A stretch of 59,345 bases of DNA, counting the filler, from Sphacelaria rigidula (taxonomy: Eukaryota), in NCBI GenBank assembly GCA_964200075.2. It is 9 parts of 9 records of this genome, joined end to end, with 100 filler letters (N's around TTAATTAATTAA, not from the genome) between each part and the next. Parts side by side here need not be neighbours in the genome. Positions count along the whole stretch, not along the records: positions 6,607 to 13,112 come from CAXNAA020019678.1; 8 more parts are not named here. One strand, 5' to 3'. The notes under the pieces were generated by a model, which saw nothing but the letters and a program-made list of their open reading frames with translations, was not told where the DNA came from and did no database searches. The position numbers and the translations under genes were made by a program. Each line of letters opens with the position of its first letter. Position 1 is the first letter of the stretch. Shown in pieces: positions 4,184 through 58,642 of this stretch.

Positions 4184-5368
4184 ACTATACACTAAGGGCA
4201 TGTCTTGGCACAGTTTTTTTCCGATCGAAAAAGTGCGGCGGAAAATATTTTTTTCGATCTGATAGATCCGCCGCATTTTTGTTCCTAGCTGGCTTCACCT
4301 ATTTTGTATGATTAGTAGCGCGCGGACAGGAAAAAAAATAACCCCCCAAGATAAGCTTTTCCGATCGAAAACGGCATGAAGGGGCACTTGACTCCCACCT
4401 TGCAGACCACCACGCCAGATAACACCCGTTCACAGAAGCATGCAAATCCCAAACAGTTCATTCTCGGCCATCACCCCAACCCTGCAGCGTAGAGCACGAG
4501 TTGAGTACAGGGATAGACAGACAAATTGCAGTGGTTGGGATATGGCTAGTTTATATTTTTGTAAACGAAAACTTGAGCATCTTCGTTCACGGATCGGCCA
4601 CGAAACCACGTGGTAGGGTTGGCGACCGACTCGCGTTCACGCTCATGGACAGTGCAGGCTCTACAATGCTGCACATTGGTCGAATCCTCTTCACGCCGCG
4701 TTGTCAGCAGAGAGTATGCAGATAGTACTGCACGTTGCCTGTTTTTTTTTCGCAGCCTTGTGTACGAAACGCGCACGCACACACATACACACTCTCAGCT
4801 AGACTCTATGCAAACAACTGTGTACTTTGCACACGCGAAGAAGTATCGCTTCACGAATTTCACCGCCTTTTATTGAACGCAAGCACAACGCAACACCGTG
4901 CTCAGTTGACCAAGAGCTACGGCTCGAGCTATTCACTTGCATACCGTGGGCCCTTGAGATCAGAAGTTGGCGTGTGCTTGTTCCTCAGGTTCGGACTGCG
5001 ACACAAGCGTGTCCCACAGCAAGATTCACTGCGCCGCTGGTTTACAACATGCCCTCCTCGATGGCGAACAGCCCCAAAACGTCTTGACTAAATACGTAGG
5101 TGACCAGAAAAATTCCTGAAAAAAAAAAAAAAGTGCCTCTTCCAGAAAAGGGGGGGGGGGGGCGAACAAAAAAACCCCGCCGCCTGTCTCTTTTCCTTCT
5201 CCCTTTTTTTTTNNNNNNNNNNAGCACAACCGCCCCCACCACCACAAACCCCAAGCTTTTTTTACACAGGGGGGGGGGGGGGGGGGAATCACAACAACCA
5301 ACGTGCTCATTGATTCTTTCTCGATACCTTTTTTGGTCTCGATACGACAGGATCTAACCCTCCCCCCA

Positions 5369-5521
5369 GATGGCGAAACAGGACAGGAATAAGGTACGGA
5401 AGAAATACGATGAGCGCCGAAATGTCAGAGGTGTCTCTACTAGGAGCAGGAACGGTGCTCCGTCTTGAAAGGGATGCGCGGTCAATGGTCAAACGATCAA
5501 GGCAAGCAACAAATGAGAACG
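5369..5521 (+). mobile_element. LINE 3' end fragment (same family as 49884-51247)
   Basis: GGAACGGTGCTCC...GGTCAAACGA...GCAAGCAACAAATGAGAACG followed by T and C10; C-rich run also immediately upstream. Confidence 0.85.
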
Positions 5522-5710
5522 TCCCCCCCCCCACGGCCAACAAAACACAGGGAGTTTCCATTCATGTGCGACGGTCAAAAGACGGTATTCCTTTCCCGCT
5601 GTTGCTCCATACCACTGCACCGTCGCGTGCAGCTGCTGTTCCACAATAGACGCTAGTTAACCGGCGTTGGGTTATAAATGTCCATGGTTGACACATTTCA
5701 CAAGTATCGT

Positions 5711-5940
5711 TAACCCTAACCCTAACCCTACCCCCAACCCATACCGAGAACCCTCGGGCAAGGGCGATACAGAGCATTCCCTAGGCAAAGTGCGGCCTTG
5801 GTAGACCCCAAATCGAAGCCTGTGGCGCCGACTTTAACAAAAACGCGTTCTGCGTACGCGAGGAGCACACGGGACTGTCAGCTCTACTAAATATCCGATT
5901 CTCATTGTACACACTCAAATCAAGTAATGTGTCAACCATG
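5711..5940 (+). repeat. Dispersed repeat carrying (TAACCC)3, copy 2
   Basis: TAACCCTAACCCTAACCCTACCCCCAACCCATACCGAGAACCCTCGGGCAAGGG...TTCCCTAGGCAAAG. Confidence 0.7.
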
Positions 5941-6606: not shown

Positions 6607-6660
6607 CAATGGTCTGATGACTATGGCATGCATGATGATGAGTACACCCCCCCCCCATTT

Positions 6661-6894
6661 TGTCGTAAAAACTATCGCTATATTAGGAGATGGACGGTGG
6701 TCACAGACGGTGGATCAGGAAGAGGACAAGATATGTGAAAATAAAAAGGCTTTTGTGTGCGATAGTGCAAAGAAGAAATGGAATGGAGCGGTCAAATGTT
6801 GGGGGTGTCTCTATTAGGAGTAGGAACGGTGCTCCGTCTAGAAAAGGATGCGTAGTCAACGGTCAAACGACTAACGCAAGCAACAAATGAATAT
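6661..6894 (+). mobile_element. LINE 3' end fragment
   Basis: Colinear with ~51030-51247; ends GCAAGCAACAAATGAATAT followed by a C-run; preceded by a variant 3' end (6607-6646) and C10. Confidence 0.85.
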
Positions 6895-7088
6895 CCCCCC
6901 CCTCCCCCCGCCTCCCCGCGCGCCTTTTGCTGTGCTTGACCAACCCTAATGCGTGCGTAAATACACATGAGTCGATCTTCTTATTTTACTCTGGATAATG
7001 ACAAAAATGTCCTGATTTCCCTCTCGCTCCGTCTTTTGCTCTCCCTATATATGTATGTGTCTGTTGTCTCATGTTGATGAACGAACAG

Positions 7089-7205
7089 CTTGTACAGAGG
7101 ATGGCTGAGCTCCAGGCGACGTTGGATCCCGGGCGTCTCAGCAAGCGCAATAAGTCTTCCACCCACCTACTGGACGCGGAAAAGAACAGAAACGCCTGCC
7201 AAGCG
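7089..7205 (+). CDS. Exon of probable MAP65/Ase1/PRC1-family microtubule-bundling protein (5' part of gene not on this contig)
   Basis: AACAG| ... |GTATGT, 117 nt, phase 0/0; LVQRMAELQATLDPGRLSKRNKSSTHLLDAEKNRNACQA resembles the PRC1/Ase1 DPxRxxxR...LLxxEKxR motif. Confidence 0.6.
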
Positions 7206-7877
7206 GTATGTCTCCCCACCCTACAGACCATAGAAGAAGTCGTAGCATTAGCTTTTGGGTAATCTAATACAGTCGTGAACGGCGGGCAATTGCCCTCGAA
7301 GAACTTCGACCCCCAAATTAGGTTGTTGGTGGGACGCTCCCCTCAAAATTTTTGTCTTGTAGACGGTGGCTATCAGCGCTGCGACAATTGTCGAGGCTCT
7401 TTTGATGCGTTCGCTACCGATCGACACGCTTATGTCTTCACGGTCGCCTTTATTGCAGTAGATATCGTCAGTGGTGTTCATGCGTGTTTGGCGTCCTCGC
7501 ATGTCCCAATGTCCCAAATTTGGCTTTGCTGAGTTTACCCGGGAGAGAAAAAAAGCCTCTGGTGAAATACTTATTTTTTTCTGCGTGCGTGCGTCTTTAG
7601 TCGCATCGTCATCATCCCCCGTGGAGTCCAAGACAGGTAAGGTGGCATGACCGTTAGGTGCCTCAAGGAAGTACTACTCCCAATATTAGAGGTTACGACT
7701 GCCGCGCTTTACTCGATTATTTCAGGTGCAAGTAGCTCACTTCCCCTCACTCACTCACCCGGACCCGGCTTACTGGCTGGTTGTGCCGGGAGATGTGTCG
7801 TTCTTTCTCGTTTTTTTTTTCACGGTGGTCCAGGTGTTCTGCCACACTCACCGCTCCTACCCACTTGCCCCCGCCAG

Positions 7878-7982
7878 GCCTATATGCGAGCTCTGAAGAG
7901 ACTGAAGGAGCAGCTGAAGACGTGGAGAGAGGCTTGCGGCTGCGGGTTCGACCCGTCTCTGCTCAGCGACGTTGCCCGAGAG
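7878..7982 (+). CDS. Next exon of the MAP65-like gene
   Basis: GCCAG| ... |GTAATC, 105 nt, phase 0/0; AYMRALKRLKEQLKTWREACGCGFDP matches the L...W......F helix that follows the motif in MAP65/PRC1. Confidence 0.6.
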
Positions 7983-8475
7983 GTAATCATAGGCCATGGT
8001 TTAACCATCTTGGTACCGCGCGGCCTGATTTTTTATGGGGGCCTCGGCCCTTGCCGTTCCCAATCGTAGTCATCCAAAGGCATGCGTTGTGCCTCCTACA
8101 GTAGACAATAGTTGAATTTCATCGTACTTGAGCTACTTTGGTACCTGTGGGTGTATTGCTTTACCGTAGAATTTTGGGGGAATCACGCCGGCGTCTTTTG
8201 TTTCTCTTGCCGTAGCTTTGCTCCCGCTTTGCTTTGTTGTCCTGCGATGTTACATCTGCCGCGCTCTATTGCAGTGCACTCGTCGACGTTTATCGTTTTC
8301 GCCTTCAGTTTCGTCCTGTTGCTGGAGAGAATGATGATCGACTCACCGGACTCTTCCCTTGACGGGAGTCTTGAACCGCCCGCCCCGCCCCCCTCCCCCG
8401 GGCGAGCCCAACTCTCATCCACCCTTTTTTCTTCATGTCTATGTTTTGTCGATATCCGATAATGTTTCTCGCCAG

Positions 8476-9228
8476 GCTCTCCTGGATCTCCAGCGAGCAG
8501 GACGCGCGGGCGCTAAGATCGAGCACATCCTACCGCATCTTGATAGCTCGGGCTCCAACGTTTCATCCTCCTCCAACAGCGCCACCGCGGCAGCAAACGC
8601 CGCAAGTAGCGGGGGCGCAAGCGGCGTGCGCTCGGTCAGCCCCGACCCACCCTCGTCAAAGCAGCCTCGCCTCCAAGATGCAACGGGGATATCCGGCACC
8701 GCCATACCATCGTCGGGCGGCGGCAACAACAAGGAGTCTGGAGCCACCTCCGGCCCTCGAGGCGGTTCCGCGATGGGAAGCAGCTCCCCTACGCTTCTTG
8801 CCGCCACGCCTCTCAGGTCTCAAACCCAGCGAATTGGTGGTCCTATGTCATTATCAAATCTCGGAGGCAGCGGGGGAGGGGGGTCGGCTGGTACGCCACC
8901 GGGTTTGTCGTCCGGAAGTGGCGCGGGTACATTCGGCGGGGAGTTCAGTTTGGGCAGTAACACCGGTGGTGGCGCGCTGACGTCCATTGCTAATCCTGAG
9001 CTCGTATCGTCTGCTACCAAGGGTCTCCGGTCCGTTCAGTCGTTCCGTGGGCGAGGTGGAGCTTTTGGCATGCTGCTGCACAAAGTGCAGGCAGGGCAGA
9101 CGCCCGTACGCCCTCCGGGCGCAGGGATATTTGACGGCGTTGATAGTGTTGGGGGAGGTGGAAAGGGGGGTACGAGTGGCGGGGCTAGCGGGCGCAGTGC
9201 GGGTTCTGGAGACGGGGCGTCGCCCTAA
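8476..9228 (+). CDS. Terminal exon of the MAP65-like gene; Ser/Gly-rich disordered tail
   Basis: CGCCAG acceptor at phase 0, in frame with ORF 8359-9228; open for 250 codons to TAA. Confidence 0.7.
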   Translation, partial: ALLDLQRAGRAGAKIEHILPHLDSSGSNVSSSSNSATAAANAASSGGASGVRSVSPDPPSSKQPRLQDATGISGTAIPSSGGGNNKESGATSGPRGGSAMGSSSPTLLAATPLRSQTQRIGGPMSLSNLGGSGGGGSAGTPPGLSSGSGAGTFGGEFSLGSNTGGGALTSIANPELVSSATKGLRSVQSFRGRGGAFGMLLHKVQAGQTPVRPPGAGIFDGVDSVGGGGKGGTSGGASGRSAGSGDGASP

Positions 9229-9916
9229 TCTGACTACTGCTCTCACGTGAAGAAAGATAATTCCCATGGTACGCAACGAAAGGAAAATGAAGGGAAAAGC
9301 AGTGTTGGAAAAACAATTGCGTTTCGTTGTTTAAAGCCGTCGGTGCAATGTACAACGTTTTGTTGCTGTAAAGGATGTGGAGGGGGTTTCGACGAAAAAT
9401 CTCGGCTTGGCAGGGTAACGTGTCGAGGGTACCGTGCTAGTGGATTGGCCGCGGTAGTGGGTAGCTGCGGTGGTTCGGTTTTGTGGCGGTGGTGGATTGA
9501 CGACACGTCGAGTATATGTGCACGTCAGTTGGGGCTCGAATCATTGCTTACGCCTCCCCCCATCCCTACCCCCCACCCGCCACACGCAACACTTTTTTGA
9601 TGGCACGTATAAGACTTTCGCAGAGTACTTTTTCAGTTTGTTTGCCTCGAAACTCGAAATGGCACACCTCAGAACTCGTCTACGCAGGGTCTATATAGCA
9701 AATATCGAACACCGAGAGCTTGGTACAGCAATGAGTATCGCCCTTCCTGCGAAATGCAGTGCCGCCAGTACGTATCATAGCATTGGTGCTACCACCCGAA
9801 TCCCATAGCGGCATTTTTGTTTTTTTGTGGATAATAACGAAGTGTACCCGTGGTTTAGGGTATAATGATCACGTAGGATGCGTAGCATTGCTTACCCCCC
9901 CCCCCCACTCCCGGGT

Positions 9917-9951
9917 GGTCAAACGCCTAAGGTAAGCAACACATGAGAACG
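9917..9951 (+). mobile_element. 35-bp extreme 3' end of the LINE family with a perfect 16-bp TSD
   Basis: GGTCAAACGCCTAAGGTAAGCAACACATGAGAACG flanked by CCCCCCACTCCCGGGT at 9901-9916 and 9952-9967. Confidence 0.85.
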
Positions 9952-12900
9952 CCCCCCACTCCCGGGTTGAAGTTGGCCCTCGTGCCTTCTGTATGATATA
10001 AGAGCCGTCCTGGTACGTGAGTGGGCTATAGCTGCGACTACAGTAGTAGATATTTTAGTAACCTGTCACTGGGAAGCTTAGAGTCTCAAGTTAGAACTCT
10101 GTACACAACGCAAACGTTGGACTAGCGGCGTTGTTTTGCTTAGGATATTTTCAGAAATCAACCAACCGCGAGCTATGTTGCAGGACCACATGTGGCTTTT
10201 GCACCCTTGCCCGATGTCGTCGGTACCGCAAACCCTTGTCGTCGAGATGCTAGTTGGTTGAGAAAAAAAAAATCTCTAGTTGTCAGTCGCGGATCGGTCG
10301 CACTTGCCGCCAATTACTCTCTGAATCTAGTGGCTCGTGCGTGCATCATCGTCTTGATATCGTAACCCAGAGGGTTGTGTAGAGTGTGGACGGGAAAGAG
10401 GTCGGTAACATGAGCGACGGCGAGACAGCGGTTCTTTGTTGAACGTTCTGTCGTGTTTTGTTTTGTTGACGGTTTTAACCAGCAGCCGCTTGCCGGCCGA
10501 TTTTTCCTGTTTCGGGGATCGACCTGGTTAGTCGGGGGAGGGGGGTGATGAAGCGCGCACCCGCGGGGGAAAGGTCGTCGCGCGTTTCAGGCCGCCGTAT
10601 GTTGGATATGAGCGTGGTGGTGATCTAATGAATCCTGAGTTGGTGTCATGCGAGAGGGGAGGGTTGGGGTCGGAGGGGAGATGCGATTCTGCCAATTGTT
10701 TTGAATGCTCTCGTGGCAGGATGCTGCTGCTGAATGGGGTTATGCTGTGTTTCTCGACTGTGTTCCTCTCTTGCATTTTTGCATCTCAGCGGACAGGCAT
10801 TGTTGACAGGCATGAATGAAGGCCCAGCGCCATCATCACTGTTGAAGTTTGGAGAGAAAAGGGCACGTGTATTGCGTTCGAGGTTCCGTTCTTGGAGAGC
10901 GGACTTTGGCATGCTCTTGTTACTTGTACGGCGAGGTCCAGTTTGTTGCTGATTCGTATTATTCCTAGCGATGGTCACCGACCGAGTCGTCGTGCGTGCG
11001 TGCGTATTTACGTGTGAACGTTTTGGCACATGTTCTCTTCAGCCCCTCTCGGGTGTCCCGTAATCAGTGGCGGTATACTGTCCCGATGTTCAAGCTATGT
11101 AGTCCTTCGTATCTCCTTTCGATTCTCGTATACCACTTCAGCTCGTGAGTCTGCTCTTTCGTACGTAAATAGGAGGAGGCTTCTGGGGCGTGAGACCCTT
11201 TTGTCACAGACCACCGCTGAGGCTGTCTGATGTTTACTCCAGTGTGTAAGTCCTCTTTTTCTCCCGTCTTCTAGTTAAATGTAAGGGGTGCAGACAAGGT
11301 GCAATAGGCCCTACTTCATTCTGGGGGCAAGTTTTTTTTCTATGGCGTTGCTGTGCTACTGTAGTAGTTACTTTTCCTGCCCTTGTTTTTTTGTCCTGTC
11401 GGTGCCGCAGTACTGTTGCTGCTCTCACGTGGTTTTGCACCCTTCGATAAAGAGTTTTTTTTCACTATTTTTCTTGCAGCAGCAGGGGTATCCCAACATT
11501 TTAATCCAGACACAAGGCGTGGCTTCCTCTGACGCACATACGTAGACTCATCCACCGAAGAATATCCGCAACTCTGCGGTTAAGGGATTGGGTAGAGTTC
11601 TGATGAATACTGTTCACCATATACCACCAACACTTTCATCCAGCGACTTTTTTGTGAGTGTGTGTGTTTGTTTTGTTCAGCCGGGAAAACGTGACATGTT
11701 CTGCTGCTCATGTATGGGTGATTCAAAACAAATTCTATCGCTGGAAACAGGCTTTTTATAGCATGATGCTGCGTCCACCGCATGTGTTGGTGCTCATTAA
11801 TTTTCCCAGGGTTCTAAGGAAAGAGACCTGTATGTACACTGAGGTTGACCAATGTTGTGCGTGTCGCGGGACAACCATCATCACGATTCGTCGGTAGTTG
11901 GCGAATGCCTCATATTAGGCCGGGTGTTGTGACAAACAGATTTTGGCCCACGGATTGTTTACTTTTCGGACGTTTGACCCACCTTTTGACCCCCAGACCA
12001 AGAAAACCGCCAACACACGTCTCGGACGCTTTGTATCACCCTACAGAGAGGAGCTTAGTCTGTTTTTCAGATTCCCTTGGCTCCGAGGTTTAGAGATTGG
12101 CTGCTGAACAAAAATCGTTCGCAAAAATCTGTGCTTGCCGACCCCCGCCAGTTTGGGCAAGCGTCGGGTTCGCGTAAACACGCAAAGATACCGTCGAACA
12201 GCAATACCAAACCTTTCTGGGATTGGCATCAGCCAGTCCGTGGAGAACGGAACATAAATCGACAAGTTACCGTTCGTATTAGGAAACAATGCGCATGAAA
12301 CGCTCTGCAGTTTGGAAAACACGCATTTTCATGGAGAGGAAACTTGCCGTACCCCCATTGGTGTTCTATGCGGTTGTAAAAACTCTACTGGCCTTCATGT
12401 ATACCTGGCGGGGGGACAGGGAAGCCATCCTCTCTCAGGTCTAGAGAGTCGTTTGAATTGTGTGGATGAAGTTGGGACCAATCAACTGTTAGGCTTTCAT
12501 ACCCGTTGCGAACTCCGGTCGGGAGTGAGTACGGCAGCAACGAAAGCTAGCTATGATCGGGTTTGCCTGCCGTACTACCGACAGCGTTGCGTGAAAGCCA
12601 CAAGACCTTTGCTGTCGGCGGTTGATGGCGTGGGTCTCAAATGCAACGACAATAGTGTTTGATCGTAGAGCAAGCTCGTCTCAGCTTGTAATGCATGACC
12701 TTCTCACATCGGAATAGTTCTGTAAAGCTACTCGTAGTGTACCGAGGTGTTTACGCGACCAGCGTGTGCTCCAGGTTGCAGCATGGACGGACTCCTATTC
12801 GCCACACTATCAACAGTTAGGTCACCACCATAGATTTTTTTTTTCACTCCGCATGTCAAAAAGGTCGCTACAAGTGTTTGATCTCTCATGCACCCCCCTT

Positions 12901-13212: not shown

Positions 13213-16100
13213 TCACAGAGTCGGTGAATTGCGCTGAAGACGTATCCACGCGATCTAGGGGCAATAGGCCGACAAAAACGTCATTGAGCACCATCGCTGA
13301 AAGTGTGAGGAAAGCACTGTTCCTGGCATCATTTCGGAGTTAAACCTCAATCCGCACAATTTGTTGTTATAGCCTTCCTTGTCCACCGTAGCTGTAGCCC
13401 ACCGAACCTGCACTCGACGAAAAGTTCCGCTAAGGCACCCCATCGACTCATGGCTCATGTCTTCCACCGCCAATGTACCATCCAGCTCATCCTCCGGCAC
13501 CTGCGTAAGAAAACTTCCCCTAGTGTAGATCCGATGCATCTGGAAACAGGAGCACCTCATACCCCCTGCTTGTGATATGACAAAGCGATAGCATGTGCCA
13601 CCAAATCTTGCGCCTCGTGCCACGCCTGAGCACGCCTGGACCTCCATGCCGACTCCTCGATTGTGCGATGTGACGCCACTCGCTTGGTACGGCGCATGTT
13701 TCCCTGTATGTGTTCCTCCCGTACTACCCGCAGCGGCTCCACTACCTCCACCAGACGCAGCAGGGACATTCTCAGCCAGTTTACCGCCTGCAGAAACTGC
13801 ATAAGCTCGCCTGCTGTGCGCGGGCGCCTAAGATTGGCCTCTCGCGGTCATGAGCCACTTGACCACCTGGGAAGACCTTTCCGCACCACGTGATCTGTGT
13901 GTCGTAGAACATCATGCACTTGTGCGCAGCCGCAAAAATGATTGGCATCCTCCAAATAGCCCAAAATCTCGTCCAATATACACAACAGATCATCCTCATC
14001 TTAATCCCTCCACAAGATATCATCCAGCCATACTTTACACTGAAGTCCGGCCAATGACCCTGTCATGATGCCTTGAAAATACCCTGTCGCATTCAACACC
14101 CCTTGTGCCCGTGTGCGGGTATACAGACCTTCGGGAGTCGCGATTGTAAACATTTCTTGTGCATCAGCCGCCAACGGCATCTGCCAGTACCCCTGCAGCA
14201 TATCAAACTTGCCAAAACACGCAGCTCCTAGCAGATCGATCATTTCCGCCTCGTGGTTAGGCATGACATTTGGAACCTTCTCAATCTGCTTGTTCACCGC
14301 GCGAAAATCACTCCCCAATCGATAACCGCCCTTCTTCGGCGTCGCCATGGCCGCACTCGCCCACACTGCCTGTAAGCTGGGAAATACGAGCCCAAGCGCT
14401 ACCAGCGTCGCCATGCACTCTGTTAACCACGTCGCCTTTACAGGGAAATACATCCGCGGGCTCGCCTATCTAGCCCCAGGTTTGAATCTCACCTTCAAAA
14501 AGCCTTGACACGGCGCCCAACAACCTCCCGGAGCTTATCAACGCTGCTCGCTGACATCCCCTTCTCCACGGCCGCCTGTACCGCATGATCCAATGCAACA
14601 CGACGCTCTGCCAGCTCCTCCTCTGGACTCCCCTGGAGTCATGTTCATCTCGGGATCACGCGACATCAATCGCTCAACGGAGGGATCCACAGGCTCCTCT
14701 CGTCCACCTAGATCCTGTAACGCCTCAATTGCAATGCTCACTCGCTCACATTCTCGGAATTCAGGCGTATCTGCACCTCTCACCGTTGACCCCAGGGAGA
14801 GAAAACCTCTGTAAAAAATTGGCCCAAAGAAAAAGGGTGGGGTATAGCGTGGTGGCTATGATAGGAGTAGACTGCTAGGGAACCCGGTGCACACACTCTG
14901 GAAATGAGTGAGGGGAACACGAGGAAATCAAGGTGACGGTGACAGTGACAACATTAGAATGTTCCTGATTGCAGTCGATAGAGCGCTGGCAAATGGAGTC
15001 GCCCTCCTCGGAGTGAAAGTGCCGGGGATCCAACCCCCACGACTAACTTTTGTGACGGTTCAAGAGACGACCAACTAGACTACTGATCAGGCAGAACGCG
15101 TGTCTTGAGCGTGCGCATGCGTCCAGCCCACTGTACACGTCAATGCCCATGACCTCCAGCATACCACTCCCGATGATCGCCCCATCATCTGCACCTGGCA
15201 TAACCGAATAATGACACGGATTCAGCACCACCGGCCCCAAGCTAGTGTGCAGAGCGGTGCGCACTAGGCACGTCTTCAACTGTATGCTCCATACATTACC
15301 ATCGGCTAGTTTCACCGGATGTGCACGAGCCATGCTCGTGACAACTTCCACATAAGGAAACACTGCTTGCAACCGGGCCGCCTTTTTTTTTGTACATGAT
15401 AGTGATGCCAGCCCCCGAATGCAAAACAGCAGTAACAGCGCGAATGTTCTTGGCTGCGGGACCAGGAACAGGTAAGTCTGCCCGGCAGCATCGCTGCTTG
15501 CGGTCAACTACCGCACCCTCAACCTGTGGATCTGCGACCTCGGCGGTGTGCAGGCCCCGCCATATCGGCACTGTCCAAGACGTCCACTCATGAGCCGGTC
15601 CCGATGGCAGTTGGGGTTGAGCTGCAGGAATTGGAGCCGAAGGCTGGGGCGGAAACATGCTATCCGCACTACTAGCACCCCCTTGCATCCCATCCCCTGG
15701 AAAAGCAGCACGTGTGGGAGCAGAACCTTCACTGCCCCCCCGCTGACCATGGACCCGTTGCTGCTGCTGCTGCAGCTTCGGCGGAAGCAACTTTGCTTGC
15801 CCACCTGACGCACTCCCCGTGGCCGCAGGTGTGCTTTGTTTGTTACATTCCTTCTTGTAGTGACCCTTATTGCCACAGTCAAAGCAGCCTGCGTAGCTGA
15901 GACCAGGTTCGTGAGACTTTTTCGAACGTTGTGAACCGCTTTTTTGCCTAAGTTGCGGTTGCTGGCGTCAGTCTTTGTCAACCGCTTTCCCAGTCCTTCA
16001 TTTTCCCGCTGATTCATGAGCGAGCATAGATAGCTCTGGTAATGATGTGTGCTGAACCAGCATTGAATGTACGGTTAGGTTCACGGAAAATGCACCCCGC
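13213..16100 (-). mobile_element. Degenerate Ty3/Gypsy LTR retrotransposon internal region (gag knuckle, protease, RT, RNase H)
   Basis: CCHC knuckle CFDCGNKGHYKKEC (15845-15886); protease AVLHSGAG...AIIG (~15110-15460); RT YRLGSDFRAVN, KFDMLQGYWQ, KVWLDDIL (14001-14453); RNase H remnants FLTQ...LSGTF...VDKEGY; many frameshifts; upstream boundary approximate. Confidence 0.92.
14001..14453 (-). pseudogene. pol: Gypsy reverse transcriptase fragment
   Basis: Conserved RT motifs including WLDD; interrupted by a stop and frameshifts. Confidence 0.9.
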
Positions 16101-17670: not shown

Positions 17671-18100
17671 TTGCACTGTGGAAGCCGAGAAGCATGTGTC
17701 TGCCCGAGGGGACAGGCACGACACTGCACCCGCCGAACATGCAGGAGGTGCTGCGCGTTTGAAACAACGATACAGGGCAGATGCTTGCACTGTGACAGCC
17801 GAGAAACATGTGTCTGCTCGAGGGAACAGGCACGACACTGCACCCGCCGAACGTGCAGTAGGTGCTGCGCGTTTGAAACAACGACACAGGGCAGATGCTT
17901 GCACTGTGAAAGCCGAGAAGCATGTGTCTGCTCGAGGGAATTGGCGCGAAAGTGCACCCGCCGAACGTGCAGTCGGCAGGGCGCGTCTTAAACCACGATA
18001 CAGGGCAGCTGTTTTCTCTGTGCAGAGCGGCACGGAGACACAGCACGTGTCTGTCAAAGCGGGGAGGGATGAGAAAGCGCCCGCCGACAGTACCGCCAAA
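17671..18100 (+). repeat. 114-bp tandem repeat, ~4 copies (38-aa repeat if coding)
   Basis: Unit starts at 17671, 17785, 17899, 18013. Confidence 0.92.
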
Positions 18101-19817: not shown

Positions 19818-19879
19818 CCCCACCCTCTTCCGATCAATGGCAAGCATGATCATGAGTACACCCCCCCCCCCTCCCCCCG

Positions 19880-20037
19880 CACACGGAAGGAAGGTGGAGG
19901 ACAAGAACAAATATATGAAGAAAAAACTCCGGTGTTGGCCTTCCTCCTGTGTGACCCCGGCTGGTGCGCTCACTTCTACGGAAAGGTGTTGACCGGCGTC
20001 CAGAATAGATGGGATGACAACATACGATACACACACA
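19880..20037 (+). mobile_element. 3' half of the tRNA-derived SINE
   Basis: Reverse complement of ~21690-21838 (CCTTCCTCCTGTGTGACCCCG...CCAGAATA.ATGGGA); CA-rich tail. Confidence 0.75.
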
Positions 20038-21684: not shown

Positions 21685-22048
21685 TTGTGTGTGTGTTGAC
21701 GTCCCATTTATTCTGGGCGCCAGTCTGCCCCTTTCGGGATATGTGGGCGCATCAGTCGGGGTCACACAGGAGGAAGGTCAAACACCGGAGCTTTTTCTTG
21801 TTCATTTGTTTTTAGTACCCGACCTTCCTTCTGCGGTGCTTGACTTTTTGTTTTTTTATCGCGAGAGGGGTCCAGCAGTCCCTTTCCCTCGTCGACCGTT
21901 ATGGCGACTTTTGTGTACCCACGACATAGTCGCTCTCCAGGGTTGGGCATGATGTAAGAAAAAAACTCAGACCGCTCCGAGAACCGAACCCCGCAACTCA
22001 ACCGGCAGACAGATACGAGGTTACCAACTGAGCCACCGAGGCGACCGG
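21685..22048 (-). mobile_element. Full-length tRNA-derived SINE
   Basis: Minus strand begins CCGGTCGCCTCGGTGGCTCAGTTGGTAA (Pol III A box) with B-box-like GGTTCGGTTCT; CA-rich tail; partial copies at 19880-20037, ~40167-40290 and ~40501-40570. Confidence 0.8.
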
Positions 22049-26759: not shown

Positions 26760-29700
26760 TCAGCACCGTCCAGGGAGAAATAGGAACAGCTTGGAAGCAT
26801 ACCTTGTTCCAACCTGCGTTCCTCACCGCAAAACCGTATCCTGTGGTCCACATAGCCATGACGATCTTCAGGGGCTCAAGTGAGGACGTGGAGTTCAACA
26901 GCGTACAACAATTTCACGAGTTGTACGGGAAAACGTTGCCCGAGCAGAATCATTTCGTGCCTGTTACGGCGGACGGGGCAGACTCAGCCCACGAACACGC
27001 CGAGAGGCGTTTTCACGATGCCATGAGCATGGCGTTTGACAAGTTAGAGTCGGCAACAACAGGTTTAAAGAAGGCAGCTGAGGACTGCAAGAAGGCGGAA
27101 ACGAAGAGGAAAAAGAGTCTGGCCGAGAGGGCGTTGGAGTCACGCGCGCGAGAAACGTATCAGGTTGTATGCAGCTTGCCAAACGCTTCACTCTTCGAAA
27201 CGCACATTGCGTCTGCATCGATGCCGCGCAATTCTGCCGCACGGTGTCTCGGGCGACTACATCTGTTGCATACCGCGTTCGTCTCACGCCGCCCTCGTGT
27301 GCACGGATTCCTGCTTGTGGCCTGCAGGCGAAACTTGATCTTGATAAGCGCGAGGCTGACGTGATCCGTTTGAAGGGCTTATATTTGGTGAGTAAGGGGC
27401 GAGCGCACCCGCTTTTATGTACGTAGTGCAACCTGATCCACTTGTGTAGACGGGGGCACGATGGCTGCAGGCAAATGCTATATAAGACGGCAGGGCTCCG
27501 ACCTTGAACAGCGGGGGGTGGAGAGAGCACAGGAAACAAATATTTCGAGGAGGATTGAAATAAGGCCTTGTCCACGATTGGATGGCAACATTTCGCTAAT
27601 ATTTTGCATCAAAACGCTCAGATATCTCAAAACAAATGTTGTACGGTGCGTTCGAGGGCGCTCGCTAACCCGAAATGAGTCCCTTGTTCTGCAACACCCG
27701 TTCCAAGGCGCGCCGTCTGGAATGTGATTTGACTTTGCGTCATCCACGTAAGTCTGGTGCGCCGTCGCTGTACTGTTCGAAATACTGCTGTGTCGTCGCT
27801 CATGTACTCACAGGAACCACGGAAGTCTGAAGAAGAGGCCATCGCCGCGGAGGAGAGGTTCACTGCCGCGCAGAAGGTAACATTCGCTGATCTGAAAAAT
27901 AGTAAACTGTTCTCGATCGTCGAGGCGTGCAACATGAACGCGCAAAGCGAACACAGCAGTGGCCTACGCCGTATTGATGTTTTTATGCCGTTTGATACTC
28001 ACGCCTCCCGTGCATGAATTGCCGCGTGCAGGAGGAACGTGTGGCAGACGTCGGGCGGAAGGCCGCAGCTGCGGAAGCACAGGAGATAGCCCGGGCGAGC
28101 CGACGGGTCGAAAATGCCGGGACGGAAGATGCCCAGCGATAGGCAGAAGAAAATGAAAAAGGGAAGGGTGGGAACCAGAACGGTGGTGGGGCCAACGGCG
28201 CAAAAGAGCAGGCAGGTCGGGGGGGAGGGGGAATGGGGGAACGCGCCGGCGAGCAGGGACTTCTTCCGGCGGGCGATGTCCAGGGCGCAGCCAGGGCAGA
28301 GGTGGACAAACGTGCGAAAGAACAACGGTTGCGTAGACTCTCTCTAGAAGCGGAGGCTAAGATCGACAGGGATTTCAATGCTGACCGCGAACGGCGTGCC
28401 CGTCGCAAGCTCAAGAGGAGGGCGAAGAAGTGTAAAGTACGAGCGCGCCGGAATGCAGAGAAGGTGGGCACCACTGGCTTGCCTGTGTGCCTGCGGGGAA
28501 ATGCTTGTGACAGCGCGTCGAGACTTGTAAATACCATCGAAATCTGCCTGTGAATACGAGCCACGCTACGATAGGGGGGGGGGGATTTTGGGCCGTTTTG
28601 ATCCACGAAATTCCACCTGAAACTGTCGTCGAAAGTGGCAACGGTTGTTCAAATCCGCTTAGTTTCGACAAATAGCACACGTTCATACTACTTGGCACCG
28701 CTCTCAACCAAGTAGAAGCGCACCGCGAGTGTGTTCAGCCGTCTGACGTACCCATCAGCCCATTTGTTCGTGGAAGCAAACACCCCCCCCCCCTCTCTCG
28801 TGGCATGTCTCATACAGTGTATGTTCCTGTCGAAATATTCGCCGGGCTGTCGCGAGAATTGGGCAGATTATTGGCACCAGGTTGTTGGTGGGGCACGTGC
28901 GGTCGATATTGTGCTGATTCGGCGGACATATATATGTTTTCACCCGACTTGACCGTACATGCTCTCATGTACTGCGGTGCCCGCTGTGTTAGGGGTCCCA
29001 GGATATACAAGTCGGCACCCGTCTTCACGACGGGTGGTGCAATAAAGAAAACCCTGGCTATGGGATGGTGATGGGCGTTAACTGGGATTCTTCAGGCCAG
29101 GTGGTGGCGAGTTACGAAGTCTTCTCGCGCGCGAGTGGGAAATTGCAGACGATGTTCCCGACGGCCGTGAGAAAGGATGCCGCGTACGCACAGCGTGTGG
29201 CGGCGTGGGGGGGGAGTACGGATGAGGACAGTGGCTGTGACGAACATAACACCGAAAGCGCGGAGAGAGGACGTTCTCGGCGGCTGCGAGGTGGCGATCG
29301 TGCCGACAGTGATTGGGAGGATGGAAGTTCGGATGAGGACGGCGACTCTCATGACGACAGTACGGAGATGATTGATGACGATCGTCCTCGGCAACTTCGA
29401 GAGAGCGGATGTTCCGACAGTGATGGGGAGGGCGGACGTTTCGATGACGACGGCGCCTCTCATGACGACAGCACGGACATCGGCGATGACGATCGTCCTC
29501 GACGACGGCGAGATAGGGAGCTTTCCGAGATTGTCGGGGAGGGCGGAGGTTTCGATGACGGCAGCAGTTCGCAGGACGACAGCATGGAAATCATTGAAGG
29601 AGACTGTTCGCCGTGGCGGCGAGATAGCGAGCGTGTCGACAGTGATATAGAGAGTGGGAGTTCCGCAGAGGATAGTGGCTCTCATGAGGCAACACGGGCG

Positions 29701-33027: not shown

Positions 33028-34710
33028 TTTTCCAAGAGGTAATGAAAACAACCCGTCGGTCTTCCCCCACCACTACCGATACAACGGACGCGTGTCTTGG
33101 GACGGGTTGGTGCACTGAAAGACATGGCTGGGGCTCCGGTGCCATGTGGCTTCAGCAAACGTGGGCTGACGACTTTATGCTTTCTTCTGTGTCGCCTTGA
33201 CGCAGTATAGTTGACCATTGGGGAGCATAAGTTGATCTATCTTGTTATTGTGAACGCCGAAATCCGGATCTTTTCATGGGAGCTGTGCTTCTGGCATGCT
33301 CCGTGGCTTTCTTTTCTCCTTCAGTTCAGAGTTTGTCCAAACTTGCCGCCAGGTGAGATGAGATACAAAGCTACGCTATCGATGGTGGCGTGGTGATGGC
33401 ACCGGGTGCAGGAGAACGAGCGCTACTATTTCCACTATCACAAGCAATGCACAGATGGGGGGATATATCCGCACACACGGAAGCCTCTAGGGGTTTGGTC
33501 GAAGGTTCAAATTCTACACCTGCCGAACATTCCACACATGCGATGTATCAACCATTTGCAGTATCAAGAGTCATCCATGGGTGTAATCTATTCTGAGGCC
33601 GCTGGACAGGGGTGACGGTTTCGCATGTCGTGAAAACCGGCGAGGGTTGGAGGTGCTGGTCTGCGCCCGTAGCCCAAACGGTTGCCCTCGTCAAGGCCAT
33701 CGATTGGGGTGCGATTTTTTGCATCATCTGTGCCAAGACAGCAACTAAAAACTCGGTAATCGATTTTTCTTTATCTCATCGGGATTCGACTTTAATAACA
33801 AATAAAGTGGGAAAAACATGTTTTTTTGCGATTTTCTCGATCACCATTACTCCTTTGGTTCCACAATCTTCCCAGATTGTAACTTGGACAAATACACGCC
33901 GGTGAGTAGCCTAGGTACGCCGTGGTTCGTAGCCCGGGACACCGAAAATGGGAAATCGTCGAGTGGAAACCCCACTCAAATCACACGTACTTGGGGGGAT
34001 TTTACGGCGTGCATAATCAGGGGATGAACGAGATCTCCGGTCTGTTCGTGCTTTTGGTCGGTGACACTTTTTTGGCTCATTTTGGGGGGTCAGGCACGCC
34101 CATAACTGTTGCAAATCTCCGCTCACATGCGCATGTATTTGCATGTGCATCAGATTTCCGTGAGCCACAGAAGAATTAAGCAAACAAGAACAATTGTGCG
34201 GTAACATCAAACCGCAAAATATTTCATCATGTGACGATGTAGCAATCATCGATAACTTACAGATGCCAAATATGTTTCCCGACTCTTTCCCCCCCCTCCC
34301 CCAAAGAAAAAAACATCATTTCCAAAAAAAAAGGGGGGGACAAGGTAGGCAAGGACGGAAAGAACATCGCAAACCTAGAGGTCGTTTGCACGCATTGTTC
34401 CTACAGCGTGTTTTCTGGACCTTGTATAATAAATGCAGGGATCTGCACACTGTGGTTTTAGCATGCTCCTCTAAACCTTGACACTGCACGGAGGTCGTCG
34501 AGGTCGTCGTGGTTTTACGACACGTCCCTCTAGACCTTGAAAAAATGCACTCGAATAAAACAATCAAAACAAATTCACCTAACGCACGTAATTTTGCTGC
34601 GCGCTCTATATAATGTACGAGTATACAGGAATCTCACACCTACTTGGGTTCTTTTACTCAATCACATTTTTTGACAGAAAAAAACAAAATCAAGTCCTTC
34701 AAACTCCAGT

Positions 34711-34899
34711 GACGATGATGATCGAAATTTAGCGTTGACGATGATCGAAGTTTAGCGTTAACGATGATGATCGAAGTTGAGCGTTGACGATGTTGATCGA
34801 AGTTGAGCGTTGACGATGATGATCGAGGTTGAGCGTTGACGATGATGATTGAGGTTGAGCGTTGACGAAGATGATCGAAGTTGAGCGTTGACGATGATG
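34711..34899 (+). repeat. 26-bp minisatellite, ~7 copies (GACGATGATGATCGAAGTTGAGCGTT)
   Basis: Head-to-tail units without spacers, immediately downstream of the Copia pol stop. Confidence 0.93.
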
Positions 34900-34932: not shown

Positions 34933-36900
34933 TTATCTCCCATATTCGGTTACAGCCTTCAGCAGTCTCTGATGTACGATTCTATCACAGCTTATGGTGA
35001 GAAGATCCGCTAATTGTTCCGAAGTTCGTACATAGTTTATCCTTAGTTGTCCGGCTCGAATCATATCTTTTAAATTAAAGAATCGTATCGCTAGGTATTT
35101 CAAGCTAGTGCTGAAGTTGGCGTTCGAAGACAGATGAAGTGCGCCTTGTGAATCCGAGTAGATAGTCGCGGGCTCAATAGATGACCATCCAAGCTCTCGT
35201 ATCAGATTGAAGAGATACGTTCCGAATTTGCCGGATTTCGAAAGGCCAATTAACTCGGCTTCTGTCGTTGAAGTGGCTGTTATACGTTGTAAGCTCGAAG
35301 TGAAGTGAACGAGCCCGTTCCACAGAAAAAATAACGTCCCCGTTGTTGATCGCATTTTCCCCTGAAGTCCGGCATTACCATAGCTAGCATCACAAAATCC
35401 CTTCAAAACCAGATTCTTATTGGAGGTTGAGTACGTTAGCGGAAGATCGGGTTTTCCCTTCAGATACCGAAACATCCGTTTAACTGCTACTAAGTTTTCC
35501 CTTCAGATACCAACCTTGAACCGCCAACCGGGCTTTAAAACGTCCGTCGGCTTTGACCTTAAAGACCCGCCTTGTACCGATGATGTCGTGGTTGCTGGCC
35601 GGGATGATATCGACTACATCATGATTCTTGATACTTTGAAGTTCGTCCAGCATGGCTGCTTGCCGTTTCGTTGAGTATGGTGAGCTCGAGGCCTGTAGAT
35701 AGTTGGTAGGTACTGTAATTGACGCGGGTGGTGAAACCTGTTCATTTCCGACAGTGAATATGTACTGACATACCATTTCCAGTGTTGCTGCAGCATGTTG
35801 ACCCCCAGAAGACATGAAGGCTAGTCGCTTTAGCTCACTAGCTTGCCGTTTGTTAATAGGTCCAGGAGGATGTTGATTGGGACCGCCAGCTGAACGCAAC
35901 CTCCTTTGGGCGATAGGCGGCCCTGTAGTCGGTGAATTGTCCTCCGTGGTGCTGTTCTCTAGCTGAGCTATAACATCGTAAATATTTATGTTGAAGTTGA
36001 TTGTGTCGTCACGATGTTCCTTATCAACAGCAGATACGTCGGGCTCCTGGATATCCAATGTCAAAAAATCTTCATCACTGCAAGGAGCTCCTGTTACTTG
36101 TTCGATGAAAGTGACGTTTCTGGAGCTGGACATTTTTCCCGAGTAGCGGTTGTAAATGCGGTACGATGGACTATCGGAATCATACCCTACCAGCACTCCT
36201 TCCCAAGCCTTTTCTTCTATCTTACTGGGATGATGCTCCCTGTGCACAAACGTCCTCGAGCCGATTGTTCGCAAGGATGATAATTACGGTTGCTTGAGAA
36301 ACATCCGAAAAAATGGTGTATCGCCGCCGATGCTTGTGTGTGGTAGACGATTGATTAAAAAGACCGCAGTTGCAGCAATTTCTCCCCAAATAAATTTCGG
36401 AAAATTTGATTCGTTCAGGAGACGACGTGTAACGTTCAAGATACTCCGCCTGTCTCTTTCACTGATGCCATTCTGTTGAGGAGTATATGGACTGGTGAAC
36501 TCTTGACGGATACCCGTAGTCTTGCAGCACCTCTTAAAATAGTCCGCGATGTATTCACCCCCACGGTCTGACCACAGACGGTGTACATGGAGCCCTGAAG
36601 GAATAGCTCAATTTTGGATCAACCTGCAGAGCGTAGTTCGGGTTTCATCCTTCGTTTTGATGAAGTAAACTACCTTGAAACGCGAGAAGTAATCCGTAAA
36701 TTTTGCCGTGTAGCGGTAGCCGCCCTGCGCCATGGGCGTAATCGGCCCTGTTAGGTCAGTGCTGACCAATTGCAGTCGTTCCAAAATATTCGTGGAGTCT
36801 ACGGCTTTGGGTGGTCCTGCTGTACACTTTTATTAAGCTTGCACGTAACACAAGGTGACAGTGACCCCTCAAAGTTCACACCTGGTTCAGGAATATTCAG
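34933..36900 (-). pseudogene. pol: Copia integrase, truncated RT and RNase H
   Basis: DDE integrase motifs; SH3-like GVLVGYD; RT jumps from ARLAVQG directly to KRMFRYLKG; RNase H ORF 34933-35475. Confidence 0.92.
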
Positions 36901-36915
36901 TAGACGGCGCATGAC

Positions 36916-38964
36916 CTACTCCGTGGGATGTCCAAGTCGCCTATGCCAAATGTCTGCTCCTGTCGTGATAGACAAAGCTGTCGGTTCTGCTCCCGCTGTG
37001 GCAGACATGACTGCTGAAATTCCCGGCACGTCGTGGTGCATGGCTTCTGCAACAACGGCTGACCCGATGCCCATAGGTTCTCCCGACATAATTGTAGCTG
37101 CAAATGCTGAGCTGTTATTAATATAACCCGGTTTCCGAGAAACTCTCACGCTGATGTACTGTAACGCTCCGTTGCTGTCACTGTTGATTGGCACTTTAAA
37201 CTTTCCGAGGTCTATATGGGACTCGTGAGAAAGTATAGTCGAAGCGCCCTTTGCAAGAGCTTGCACAGGGGAGAACAGATGCTTCCCCAAACCTGGGACA
37301 ATTACGGCTGGGAGCCGAACAGAACGTTGGTACCCCTCAGAGTCAATGACCACGGTGTTCAGAACTCTTTTTGCTGTACCATAGAGTAGATGGCGCTCCG
37401 CTGTTAAAATCGTCATCGGGGTATCGAGTTTGACCAGCTCGACCATTTCACATTCGATGTCGGGTAGCAACTGATCATCCAGAAAGTGTCCAGTGCTGCC
37501 GCTATCCACTGTCAACTGAAGAGAAGTTTGATCGGATGTATCAGTGACATATGAACCAGAGAGAAGAGAAAATCCCATGCCGTTTGGTGGTGATGATGTA
37601 TATATCACTGTCGCAGTTGTTGTTGATAAAGAAGTTTGTATACCGTTGTTATTCGATGGTGCGGTTGTAGAAGCTGGATCGGCGACGACTGTGTTGGCTT
37701 GGCGTTGATGTCCGTTGGAGTTGTTGCTGTTGTGGTTGCTCCTACTGTTGTTGTTGCTGCTGTTGTCACGGTTGTTATTTCGATGGCGGGGTTTTCTGCG
37801 ACGATGATGGTTATTATTTTTGTTGTTTCCAGCGTTGTAGGCTGCATTCCCGCGGTTCTGTTGAGATCTACAATCAGAATCGTCATGCTTGTTAGTATGA
37901 GGGAAACTGCACCATTTTATAGGCCTGTTCCCGTCATTTGACTGCATTTGGGAGCGATAGTCTCTGGCCTGATGTCCTGGTTTCCCGCAGGTGTCGCAAT
38001 TTCCACGAAGGTTTTGGGGTTGATTCAAAGATCTCGACAGTGATGTCACCAGCAGTGATGAATCGCGGCCATGCGATTTCCCGGAGGTATATCTCCGCGC
38101 CATGCGATTAGCAAACATATTTTGCATTGTTCTTTCGATGCTCTGAATACTGAGATCTTGATCACGCTCCGCATTGTACTTGATGAGGTCATACTCACTT
38201 GTTAAACCTTCGATCACTATGTCAGTCAGCCTTTCTTCGTAAATGGCCTCGCCAAGGTTGTCCTGTTCGTCCCGAAGCTGATACACATTGCTCGAGAAAG
38301 TATCAGGGTCTTGCCCTGGTGACATGGAGACGTTGTTGAGTTCTCTCATCAAGATCCTGATTATCTGCTTCGAAAACTTTTGATACCTGGAAATCAAAGC
38401 CTCCCATGCACGTTTGCCGTTTGGTCTCTCTGAACCCCTCGGCTGGAAACGCAACAAATAACTCGCTGCAGGACCAGTTGTAGACAGGTACAAAACGTGG
38501 AACGATTATTGATTGCACCGGTCCCAACTTTCTATCTCACGCGTGTTAGAAACCCGCCTCAGATGTGACACCACGCTTGGAGAACGAGGTTCTCGTGTAG
38601 AATGATGGTTTTCTTCGGTAGGTCCAGTCACATCCACCGCCGCGATCGTCTCGTCCCCAGCGGTTGCCTCCACCGATGAGAAATGCGGTCGAACGGACGA
38701 CCGCTGGCGGGTGGTTTGAGAACGAGTTCTAGCAGGGGTAGGTCTTGTGGCAGCTGGTTGTGGACGATCTACCTCAGAAAAATCTTCTTCTAGTTCCGCG
38801 GGGCGTTTGACCCCGTTGAGGATATCTGCAATCCCCGGATGAGTCAAAGAAATGATTGCGCGCGTAGAGCGCATCCACTCTCCGAACTTTGTACCGTCGA
38901 ACTTGTTGATGCTCTTGATGAGCTGAGTTACAGATGGCTCTCCCGACATATTCATCTGCCTCAC
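36916..38964 (-). pseudogene. gag: Copia gag-protease-pre-integrase region (ORFs 38506-38964 and 36916-38493)
   Basis: AWEALISRY gag motif; damaged knuckle CDTCGKPGHQARDY; second Cys/His motif WCSFPHTNKHDDSDC; DSG protease. Confidence 0.9.

Positions 38965-44776: not shown

Positions 44777-44827
<51 letters not shown>
44777..44827 (+). repeat. (ACA)17 microsatellite
   Basis: Direct observation. Confidence 0.97.
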
Positions 44828-49680: not shown

Positions 49681-49883
49681 CGACGAGTATTTTTGGTTGG
49701 ATATGCGTGAAAGAACCTTTCCTTGAATACTCTTGAACGCAAAAAATGGGAGCAGCCAGCGGAAAAATCAATGCATTAGTCATACGCAACTTGAAGATAA
49801 AGGTGCTCGTTTGCAGTACAATGTGCACAGTAAAATATATTCGTGCTCGAACGCGTCATTTTCAACGCTCCCCAGCAGCCTGT

Positions 49884-51247
49884 GTGAAGATATGATATCA
49901 GGATTGATGTGTCACGGACGATTTTTTGCGGAGATCTCAGAAACACTAGAAGGATTGCAGAACAAATAAAGAAGGCGCTGAAATGCACTAGGAAATGGAT
50001 AGTGACAGCGAACATTAGCAAATGCGCAGTACTTGTATGTGACGAAGAAAATAAAAATCCGGTAGAGAGTTCATGTGGAAGTAGGGAGGAGAGGAACTGC
50101 CGATTGTATACCAGGATACATACCTCGGCGTAGAGATCTCAAAAAACAGTTCTTGGGATGCACACGTGAATAAAGTCATGGAAAAGGGTGAGGCACAGAT
50201 AGGCAGGATGGATGTGAACTACAGAGACTCGCACCTAGATACTAGGGTCAAGATACGTATCCTGATGAACGTAATCTTACCAAAGCTGGAATATGCGGGA
50301 GAAGTACGGGAGGGGAACGTGAAGTTGAAGAAGTTGAAAACAGCACAGTTGGCAGCAGCTAAAAAGGTACTTGGGTGCTCGAAAACGAAGAGTAATACAG
50401 CATTGAGAGCAGAGATGGGAATGTACCCACTTGAAACAGAGATGTGAGAGAAGTGAGATGGCAACATGGCGTGAAGAACATGCAGGGTAAGAGATTGAAA
50501 GCCATAGTTGATGGGACTGCAAGGAAGAAAGTAACGAAAAGGCGGGCTGGAATAAGGTGGGATAGAGAAGTCGAGAAAGTATGGAAGGAGATAGGAGTAA
50601 ATCAAGACGAAATACTGTCCATAAGTGAGGGTTCCGGGTACAGGACAGATAGAAATAAGGGGGAAAGAAACGCTCAGACGCAAAGTAGACGAGGGAAAAC
50701 ACCTGGAGATATACGGGTGGTTGAGAGAAGGGATGGGAATAGAAAGATATCTGCATGGCCCACTGGACGCGGCGAAAAAATCGAAACTGCGATTTCGGGT
50801 AGGGGACCTGGACCTGCCAAAAAGCAGAACGAGGTAGATACACCAGTGGTCGAGAGGAGGAGGAAGTAGACGCACAGAATTGCCCCCGTGGCAAAGCAAT
50901 AGAAAGCAGAACTCGGTAGTGGAAAAACGTGAACTATGAACTATGCAAGGAGGAACGGGACGTGCTACAGGGGTAAATGAGGAACGTGAAATACGGTGGC
51001 ATGAAATCGTTTGATGCATTAGACAGTAGGGAGAAAACGATGGCTATACTATGATATAGATGGTGGCCACACACGGGAACACAGGACGGGGATAAGATAT
51101 GTGAAAGGTTTCGTGTAATGTGTGGGAGAAACATAATGAGCACCGAAATATTGGAGGTATCTCTACTATGAGTTGGAACGGTGCTCCTTCTTCAAAGGGA
51201 TGTGTAGTCAAAGGTCAAATGACCGAGACAAGCAACAAATGAGTACG
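49884..51247 (+). mobile_element. 5'-truncated, decayed LINE (RT C-terminus, Zn-knuckle remnant, 3' UTR), probably RTEX-like
   Basis: GLM.TDDF (degenerate YADD), KW..TANISKCAVL, YLGV, ILPKLEYAGEV, KKVLG...SNTALRAEMG, KLRFRVG, CP.G..IESRT; imperfect 16-bp TSD at 49868-49883 and 51248-51263. Confidence 0.9.
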
Positions 51248-52841: not shown

Positions 52842-52842
52842 G

Positions 52843-52917
<75 letters not shown>
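52842..52917 (+). repeat. Compound (GTT)n(GTC)n microsatellite at contig start
   Basis: Direct observation. Confidence 0.97.
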
Positions 52918-58604: not shown

Positions 58605-58642
58605 ATTTGGTTATTGTTATTGTTGTTGTTGTTGTTGTTGTC
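58605..58642 (+). repeat. (TTG)n/(TTA)n microsatellite
   Basis: Direct observation. Confidence 0.85.

Follow-up and report, generated by a model that had tools for sequence, protein, structure and literature searches.

In the brown alga Sphacelaria rigidula, a member of the order Sphacelariales, we have found truncated copies of a long interspersed nuclear element (LINE) whose 3' ends run into homopolymeric cytosine and whose readable 5' junctions are preceded by cytosine as well. These are probably 5'-truncated copies of a brown-algal LINE of the RTE-X lineage, with a single open reading frame (ORF) and an endonuclease of the apurinic/apyrimidinic (APE) type, that inserts at C-runs by target-primed reverse transcription. 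That they represent a LINE with a C-run as its target is held with high confidence; the affiliation with RTE-X, in the sense of the Ectocarpus elements RTEX-1/2_Ec32, appears likely. The window analysed here, a stretch of 59,345 nucleotides from assembly GCA_964200075.2, consists of ~6.5-kb blocks with eight N/TTAATTAATTAA/N spacers between them; it falls into ten stretches of A, C, G and T and is not a single locus.

Results

The initial annotation of the window had picked out six LINE 3' ends, and all six were found where it had placed them, on four separate contig pieces (5223-6506, 6607-13112, 19818-26322 and 46238-52741) and each followed within 1 nt by at least six C. The end at 5521 reads ...ATGAGAACG and is followed by a T and then C10, which occupies 5523-5532, 1 nt beyond the 3' end; that at 6646 reads ...ATGAGTACA, then C10; that at 6894 ...ATGAATAT, then C8TC6 (6895-6909, abutting the end); that at 9951 ...ATGAGAACG, then C6; that at 19860 ...ATGAGTACA, then C11TC6 (19861-19878, again abutting the end); and that at 51247 ...ATGAGTACG, then C6. 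Four copies from outside the window, three on marine metagenome contigs (L029, L053 and L091) and one on a contig binned in a metagenome-assembled genome (MAG; L120/L122), end in ...AAATGA(G/C)TACG followed by C8, C11, C10 and C13. A C-run (C6-C13) is thus present after all ten ends, and at none of the ten is there a poly(A) tail or A-run, so that the L1-like combination of a poly(A) tail with an A-led target-site duplication (TSD) is not what is seen here. The metagenome contigs had been scanned with a 17-mer lying about 70 nt upstream of the LINE end, and the scan was hence blind to the flank; it returned 119 loci, three with the family and 116 that match by chance. The single match on the MAG contig came from prokaryote genome contigs, scanned with a 20-mer, and viral contigs gave no match to the LINE.

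The ends were initially taken to be those of one family or its close variants, and for four of them (5521, 6894, 9951 and 51247) a single family is indeed what we find: 5390-5530, 6668-6902 and 51034-51253 are 72-82% alike in a self-BLAST, and the region 9916-9957 is 83-90% identical to the 3' ends of L091, L029 and L053 over 42 nt. The ends at 6646 and 19860 form a variant that shares with the main family its last 40-50 nt only, at 77-82% identity, the two variant copies being 94% alike (6623-6656 against 19837-19870, self-BLAST). One variant 3' end (6607-6646, on the plus strand like all the LINE features described here) is cut off where its contig piece begins and, over 50-61 nt, shows 77-82% identity to the 3' ends of the LINE; the other (19839-19860) lies near the start of its piece. 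A non-autonomous partner of the LINE may be the source of the short variant end, and that just the terminal 40-50 nt are shared suggests that it is this region that the enzyme recognises. The same 3' consensus was recovered from contigs of four public runs belonging to three studies (X1, X4, X8 and X9): laid on 6607-10400, the contigs matching element ends number from 1755 to 25153 per run, and those that go past 6890 continue with GTACG and at least 12 C (31, 24, 31 and 154 contigs in X1, X4, X8 and X9).

Could the runs stand beside the LINE ends merely because C and G homopolymers are frequent in this genome, or because the assembly contains errors? Runs of at least six number 62 in the window (31 of C and 31 of G, the two strands together), about one per kb, and most of them are not beside a LINE end; moreover, there are 90 pattern matches for C or G runs of at least eight, as against 1.42 in shuffles. 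Nevertheless, a run of at least six would fall within 1 nt of a random position with a chance of only ~1/1000, and when this rate is set against six of six ends in the window and four of four outside it, the association is not one of chance. Since the run also occupies the same position in all ten ends, which come from four independent sources, and since the contigs of four runs from three studies agree on the consensus, we regard coincidence or artefact as extremely improbable.

The 5' junctions show that the C-run was there to be duplicated. A C-run stands directly before each of the four window copies whose 5' junction can be read (C12, C10, CCCTCCCCCC and C4); the base ahead of the run is an A for three of the copies and a T for one. 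At 9917-9951 lies a LINE 3' stub of 35 bp, an extreme 5' truncation that comprises the last codons, the TGA stop and a 3' untranslated region (UTR) of 5 nt. The stub is flanked upstream by C12 (9895-9906) and ACTCCCGGGT, together 9895-9916, and downstream by C6 and ACTCCCGGGT (9952-9967), such that CCCCCCACTCCCGGGT is present at both 9901-9916 and 9952-9967 as a perfect 16/16 direct repeat with its copies 51 nt apart; the initial annotation had described both stub and repeat, and our only amendment is that the upstream run is actually C12. A much longer copy of ~1.36 kb (49886-51247), 5'-truncated and frameshifted, has CCCC and AGCAGCCTGT as its 5' flank and CCCCCC and AGCGACCTGT as its 3' flank. 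Here the upstream copy of the duplication is CCCCAGCAGCCTGT at 49870-49883, with element homology from 49886, and the downstream copy is C6 and AGCGACCTGT at 51248-51263; taken over 49865-49883 and 51245-51263, 16 of 19 nt agree (84%), including 3 nt (ACG) of the element end.

For the other two copies the duplication amounts to the run itself. The ~154-bp copy at 5368-5521, which is coding up to a TGA at 5514-5516, is preceded by the C-rich flank CCCTCCCCCC (5358-5367), and its homology to L029, L053 and L091 starts from 5364, so the last Cs of this flank may be microhomology with the element; 5362-5377 and 5525-5540, around the first bases of the element and in its 3' flank, are similar at 12 of 16 positions, as microhomology at the 5' junction would give. 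The ~238-bp copy at 6657-6894 has a duplication of C-run only, and its 5' C10 (6647-6656) doubles as the run that follows the variant end at 6646, which marks either an insertion into a C-run or a tandem joint at one. Many of the public contigs have a joint of this kind with other truncation points: in at least nine of the joints listed, the C-run at 6648-6658 passes directly into tails that are truncated differently (6786-6854).

The position of the copy at 6657-6894 behind an older variant end is also what might be expected if the C-run were purely a tail borne by the element, a counterpart of poly(A) or microsatellite tails or a product of untemplated Gs added to the primer by the reverse transcriptase (RT), with the upstream runs explained by landing in, or template jumping onto, older tails. 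Head-to-tail joints with an intervening C-run are frequent in the public contigs, where several joints that go back along the element reflect head-to-tail copies with a C-run between them; in Ectocarpus, too, the element RTEX-N1 is noted as one that 'can be present in tandem' (PMC12477816). Such an origin is nonetheless quite unlikely. No recognisable element end lies upstream of the 5' runs of the stub (9895-9967) and of the 1.36-kb copy (49870-51263), and nesting in older tails therefore cannot explain these two. Both of their duplications begin with the C-run and pass from it into unique DNA, from which it follows that the run is part of the target, as had first been proposed, and a run is present at four of four 5' flanks.

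The stub is spanned by a contig in X1, X4 and X8, while two X9 contigs end inside it; its C-run is one C shorter in X8 and one C longer in X9. In the MAG copy the 5' junction lies outside the contig, and no repeat of its 3' flank was found in the upstream 1.4 kb. The 11-mer AGGATGCGTAG occurs at 9877-9887, 8 nt before the 5' C-run of the stub, and also in the LINE tail at ~6848-6858; it may have been left by an older copy, or be there by coincidence.

The original assignment of these copies to a LINE is supported by the more complete relatives outside the window. L122 (5259 bp) carries one sense ORF of 1333 aa, with no separate ORF1, the only other ORF of at least 150 aa being antisense and nested inside it. 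The 1333-aa product has an APE-type endonuclease (Exo_endo_phos at residues 144-366, E 7.7e-11; Exo_endo_phos_2 at 253-388) and a non-LTR RT (RVT_1 at 714-963, E 6.4e-32), and the same endonuclease domains are precomputed for the database proteins P0002 and P0003; the window copies are too truncated to include this domain. L029 retains an open frame of 521 aa with RVT_1 (E 5.8e-14), a FADD motif and a C-terminal Cys/His motif, ending in NGQMTKASNK*; its TGA lies 5 nt ahead of the C-run, giving a 3' UTR of 5 nt, and the window 3' ends correspond to the last codons of the LINE ORF. By tblastn the 1.36-kb window copy covers residues 910-1360 of the full ORF, that is, the end of the RT, the C-terminal CCHC region and the stop, and it is 76% identical to L029 over 1394 nt. 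As expected of a LINE, the four window copies (35, 154, 238 and 1362 bp) combine a common 3' end and varied 5' truncation with TSDs. A reading on the opposite strand, with a G-led 5' end, was considered and rejected, since, in the direction of the ORF, the run comes at the 3' end.

In the databases, the LINE ORF is closest to unnamed ORFs from metagenomes, which are 1328-1360 aa long and 75-88% identical, with P0002 (1360 aa) at 88%. The closest named relatives are three proteins of Ectocarpus sp. CCAP 1310/34 that are 53-71% identical, one of them at 55% over 963 residues. Among solved structures P0002 is closest to human L1 ORF2p, in the RT region only (8uw3_A, E 6.6e-21), and its Atlas matches are to unnamed clusters of endonuclease-RT (EN-RT) proteins only.

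Other features of the window

Around the stub, on the plus strand of 7086-10400, contigs of X1, X4 and X8 skip from 7204 to 7877 and from 7980 to 8474, with GT..AG ends at the joins, and an X9 contig runs through the parts that the others leave out. The joins are such as a spliced plus-strand transcript would give, the kind of these runs being our guess, and the stub with its downstream repeat (9917-9967) would then be part of a long exon that extends from 8474 to beyond 10400, with the stub placed downstream of an ORF (8359-9228) whose product matches an S. rigidula protein. A 250-aa ORF at 8476-9225 matches P0024, an 'unnamed protein product, partial [Sphacelaria rigidula]', with 100% identity along 70% of the ORF.

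Near the LINE ends, an interstitial telomere-like array of five imperfect TAACCC units lies at 5711-5740, ~180 nt downstream of the end at 5521, and an inverted repeat pair with 80% identity (19886-20025 and 21691-21831) has its first copy beginning right after the C11TC6 behind 19860; the stretch at 19886-20025 could be the head of a putative non-autonomous element in tandem. The longest homopolymer of the window, a run of 40 G, is found at the start of a contig piece (26432-26504), where it follows C11, G8 and a short GC-rich stretch.

Other retroelements are represented on the minus strand by a Copia-type long terminal repeat (LTR) retrotransposon fragment at 34936-38505, with Retrotran_gag_2, zf-CCHC, integrase core and SH3_retrovirus domains in consecutive frames, and by a chain of open frames at 13258-16074 in which RVT_1 is matched weakly at 14004-14465 (E 2.6e-5, short of the Pfam cut-off). 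The latter gave no tblastn match to the proteins of the C-run LINE and may be the decayed remains of a retroelement from a different family. Arrays of (ACA)17 and (GTT)n, which read as (CAA)n on one strand or the other, occur at 44777-44827, 52842-52885 and 58610-58641 and may be the tails of RTE-type LINEs, to judge from the '(CAA)n 3'' that a curated table notes for RTE-1/2_Ec32 (PMC12477816). Tandem repeats are present at 17671-18022 (114 nt, 3.1 copies), 29299-29593 (111 nt, 2.7 copies) and 34710-34899 (26 nt, 7.4 copies), the 111-nt array lying inside a 330-aa ORF that has no Pfam match. Rfam and tRNA scans of the window gave no match.

Discussion

The duplications bear directly on how the element selects its target. 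Given target-primed reverse transcription, they require that the bottom strand be nicked at the 3' side of, or within, the G tract. In the mechanism that we propose, the endonuclease would act on an oligo(G) tract in the bottom strand, which it would nick either at the 3' side or inside the tract, and the G-ended primer so released would pair with a few 3'-terminal Cs of the element RNA; these Cs might be either a short (C)n tail or read-through from the run of the previous insertion. Synthesis of cDNA would begin at ...GUACG, and a cut in the top strand ~8-16 nt downstream would lead to duplication of the C-run, so that each insertion would make a new C-run target. The initial annotation had cast the family as the G/C mirror image of L1, and of this picture the nick that leaves an oligo(G) 3' end follows from the TSDs; as for pairing between a G-ended primer and a C-ended RNA, as opposed to endonuclease specificity alone, we lean towards it by a small measure.

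An alternative of lower probability is that the element RNA has no Cs at all: the endonuclease alone would pick the oligo(G).oligo(C) edge, the RT would start unpaired, as in R2, and the Cs at the 3' end would be a copy of the target. It would agree with this that, across the four insertions that can be read, the run on the 3' side shows no systematic excess in length over that on the 5' side, and that the variant has just its last 40-50 nt in common with the main family, which fits an RT that recognises the 3' region rather than a tail. However, two copies have the longer run on the 3' side, the Ectocarpus relatives have been curated with '(C)n 3'' in their consensus, as their table entries put it (PMC12477816), and the TSD that reaches 3 nt (ACG) into the element end, at 49865-49883 and 51245-51263, hints at pairing, though this is one case only. 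The description of the family as tail-less is accordingly unproven, for the present data neither show nor exclude Cs in the RNA and the table entries for the Ectocarpus relatives include a (C)n 3' end.

Several points weigh against the reading of these copies as an RTE-X element that targets C-runs. Readable 5' junctions number only four, with two of their duplications consisting of Cs alone, and the run length on the 3' side minus that on the 5' side (-6, -2, +4, or 0 if CCCTCCCCCC is counted as ten, and +2) has no direction. No empty allele was seen at the stub, as every contig that reaches the stub carries it. A conserved 3' RNA structure found no support, in that RNAalifold on the six 96-nt ends gave 22 pairs with no compensatory changes; the z-scores of single folds were -0.41 and -0.65 for LINE ends and +0.78 and -0.65 for variant ends, in a 3' region that is also coding. 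Runs of at least eight C or G are common independently of LINE ends: the window has 19, as against 1.4 pattern matches in shuffles, and only five of these touch an element end that can be recognised. The public-run data are contigs and can be read for no transcript start, end or strand. Finally, the RTE-X label rests on the names given to the Ectocarpus elements in a published table (PMC12477816), compared by description.

The comparison with better-known LINEs is instructive on both sides. L1 has a poly(A) tail, and its T-rich primer comes from a nick at TTTT/AA. The C-run LINE resembles it in having an APE endonuclease and an RT, in TSDs that begin with the homopolymer that ends the element, and in its 5'-truncated copies, but differs in that the homopolymer is C and not A, and hence cannot derive from polyadenylation, in its single ORF without ORF1, in its 5-nt 3' UTR and in its clade. 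The single ORF and the very small 3' UTR are shared with RTE-type elements. Eel UnaL2 is another LINE with short 3' repeats. LINEs that are specific for simple repeated targets include Waldo, Mino, Kibi and Koshi of the R1 clade, Dong, and the telomere-specific SART and TRAS; these belong to other clades and have specific di- to penta-nucleotide or gene targets, whereas the target of the C-run LINE is a short homopolymer scattered genome-wide.

The initial annotation had suggested that this behaviour may be undescribed, and that suggestion does not stand. In the curated Ectocarpus table of transposable elements that forms Supplementary Material 3 of a recent study (PMC12477816; Genome Biol 2025), RTEX-1_Ec32 (5511-5867 bp) is entered as having a 'single EN-RT ORF; (C)n 3'' and a 'C-rich' TSD, and RTEX-2_Ec32 as having '(C)n termini/TSD' and, again, a 'C-rich' TSD. 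The same table holds two non-autonomous elements with a 'C-rich' TSD, RTEX-N1 (~600 bp), whose 3' 60 bp are 83% like RTEX-1/2, and RTEX-N2 (188 bp). What these entries note for RTEX-1/2_Ec32 is found in our material at ten of ten 3' ends and four of four 5' flanks. On the table's description, RTEX-1/2_Ec32 and the Sphacelaria LINE are alike as brown-algal elements with a single EN-RT ORF, a (C)n 3' end and C-rich TSDs, and RTEX-N1/N2_Ec32 would have their counterpart in our variant ends, as short partners that share the 3' end, with tandem copies in both hosts. The Ectocarpus elements are 5.5-5.9 kb long, where we have a 4.0-kb ORF within contigs of 4.9-5.6 kb, and the host is of another order; the likeness is one to the notes of the table, which come without TSD analysis or mechanism (PMC12477816).

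The table also gives a '(CAA)n 3'' end for RTE-1/2_Ec32 and a '(CA)n 3'' end for CRE-1_Ec32 (PMC12477816), and in these, as in the C-run LINE, a short repeated 3' terminus would be able to pair with a nicked target; the difference is that the unit here is a single base and that the run was visibly in the target before insertion. The main text of the same study names RTE-X as the most abundant LINE group and, in the part consulted, leaves the C feature unmentioned (PMC12477816). Within the parts consulted of two further sources, a Saccharina paper names RTEX-1 and says nothing on its ends (PMC4421812), and a preprint on brown-algal genomes contains no LINE family analysis (10.1101/2024.02.19.579948). 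In literature searches judged from titles, we found no published mechanistic or genome-wide analysis of C-run targeting by a LINE. The C-run behaviour is thus already annotated for the RTEX elements of Ectocarpus, and what the Sphacelaria element adds is another order and evidence at the level of junctions.

A bolder proposal, which we put forward tentatively and consider doubtful as it stands, is that this brown-algal RTE-X lineage is a true homopolymer-specific LINE, whose endonuclease would read the oligo(G).oligo(C) edge, whose 3' terminus, instead of being a fixed part of the element, would be rebuilt from the target at each jump and whose every insertion would seed a further target. If this were true, the trait would have been kept since the split of Sphacelariales and Ectocarpales, and LINE activity would help to account for the long C and G runs of these genomes, which are in excess by roughly tenfold or more, although a causal link from LINE insertion to that excess is speculation on our part. 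For annotation, at least six C after ...ATGAGTACG marks the ends of brown-algal RTE-X elements, including 35-bp stubs of the kind that repeat maskers would miss. The element offers a natural G/C counterpart of the rule known from L1, that the duplication starts with the base of the tail, and with it a clean system in which to separate primer-template pairing from the endonuclease in the choice of target by LINEs. It may also, we suggest, be a source of the numerous C and G homopolymers of brown-algal genomes.

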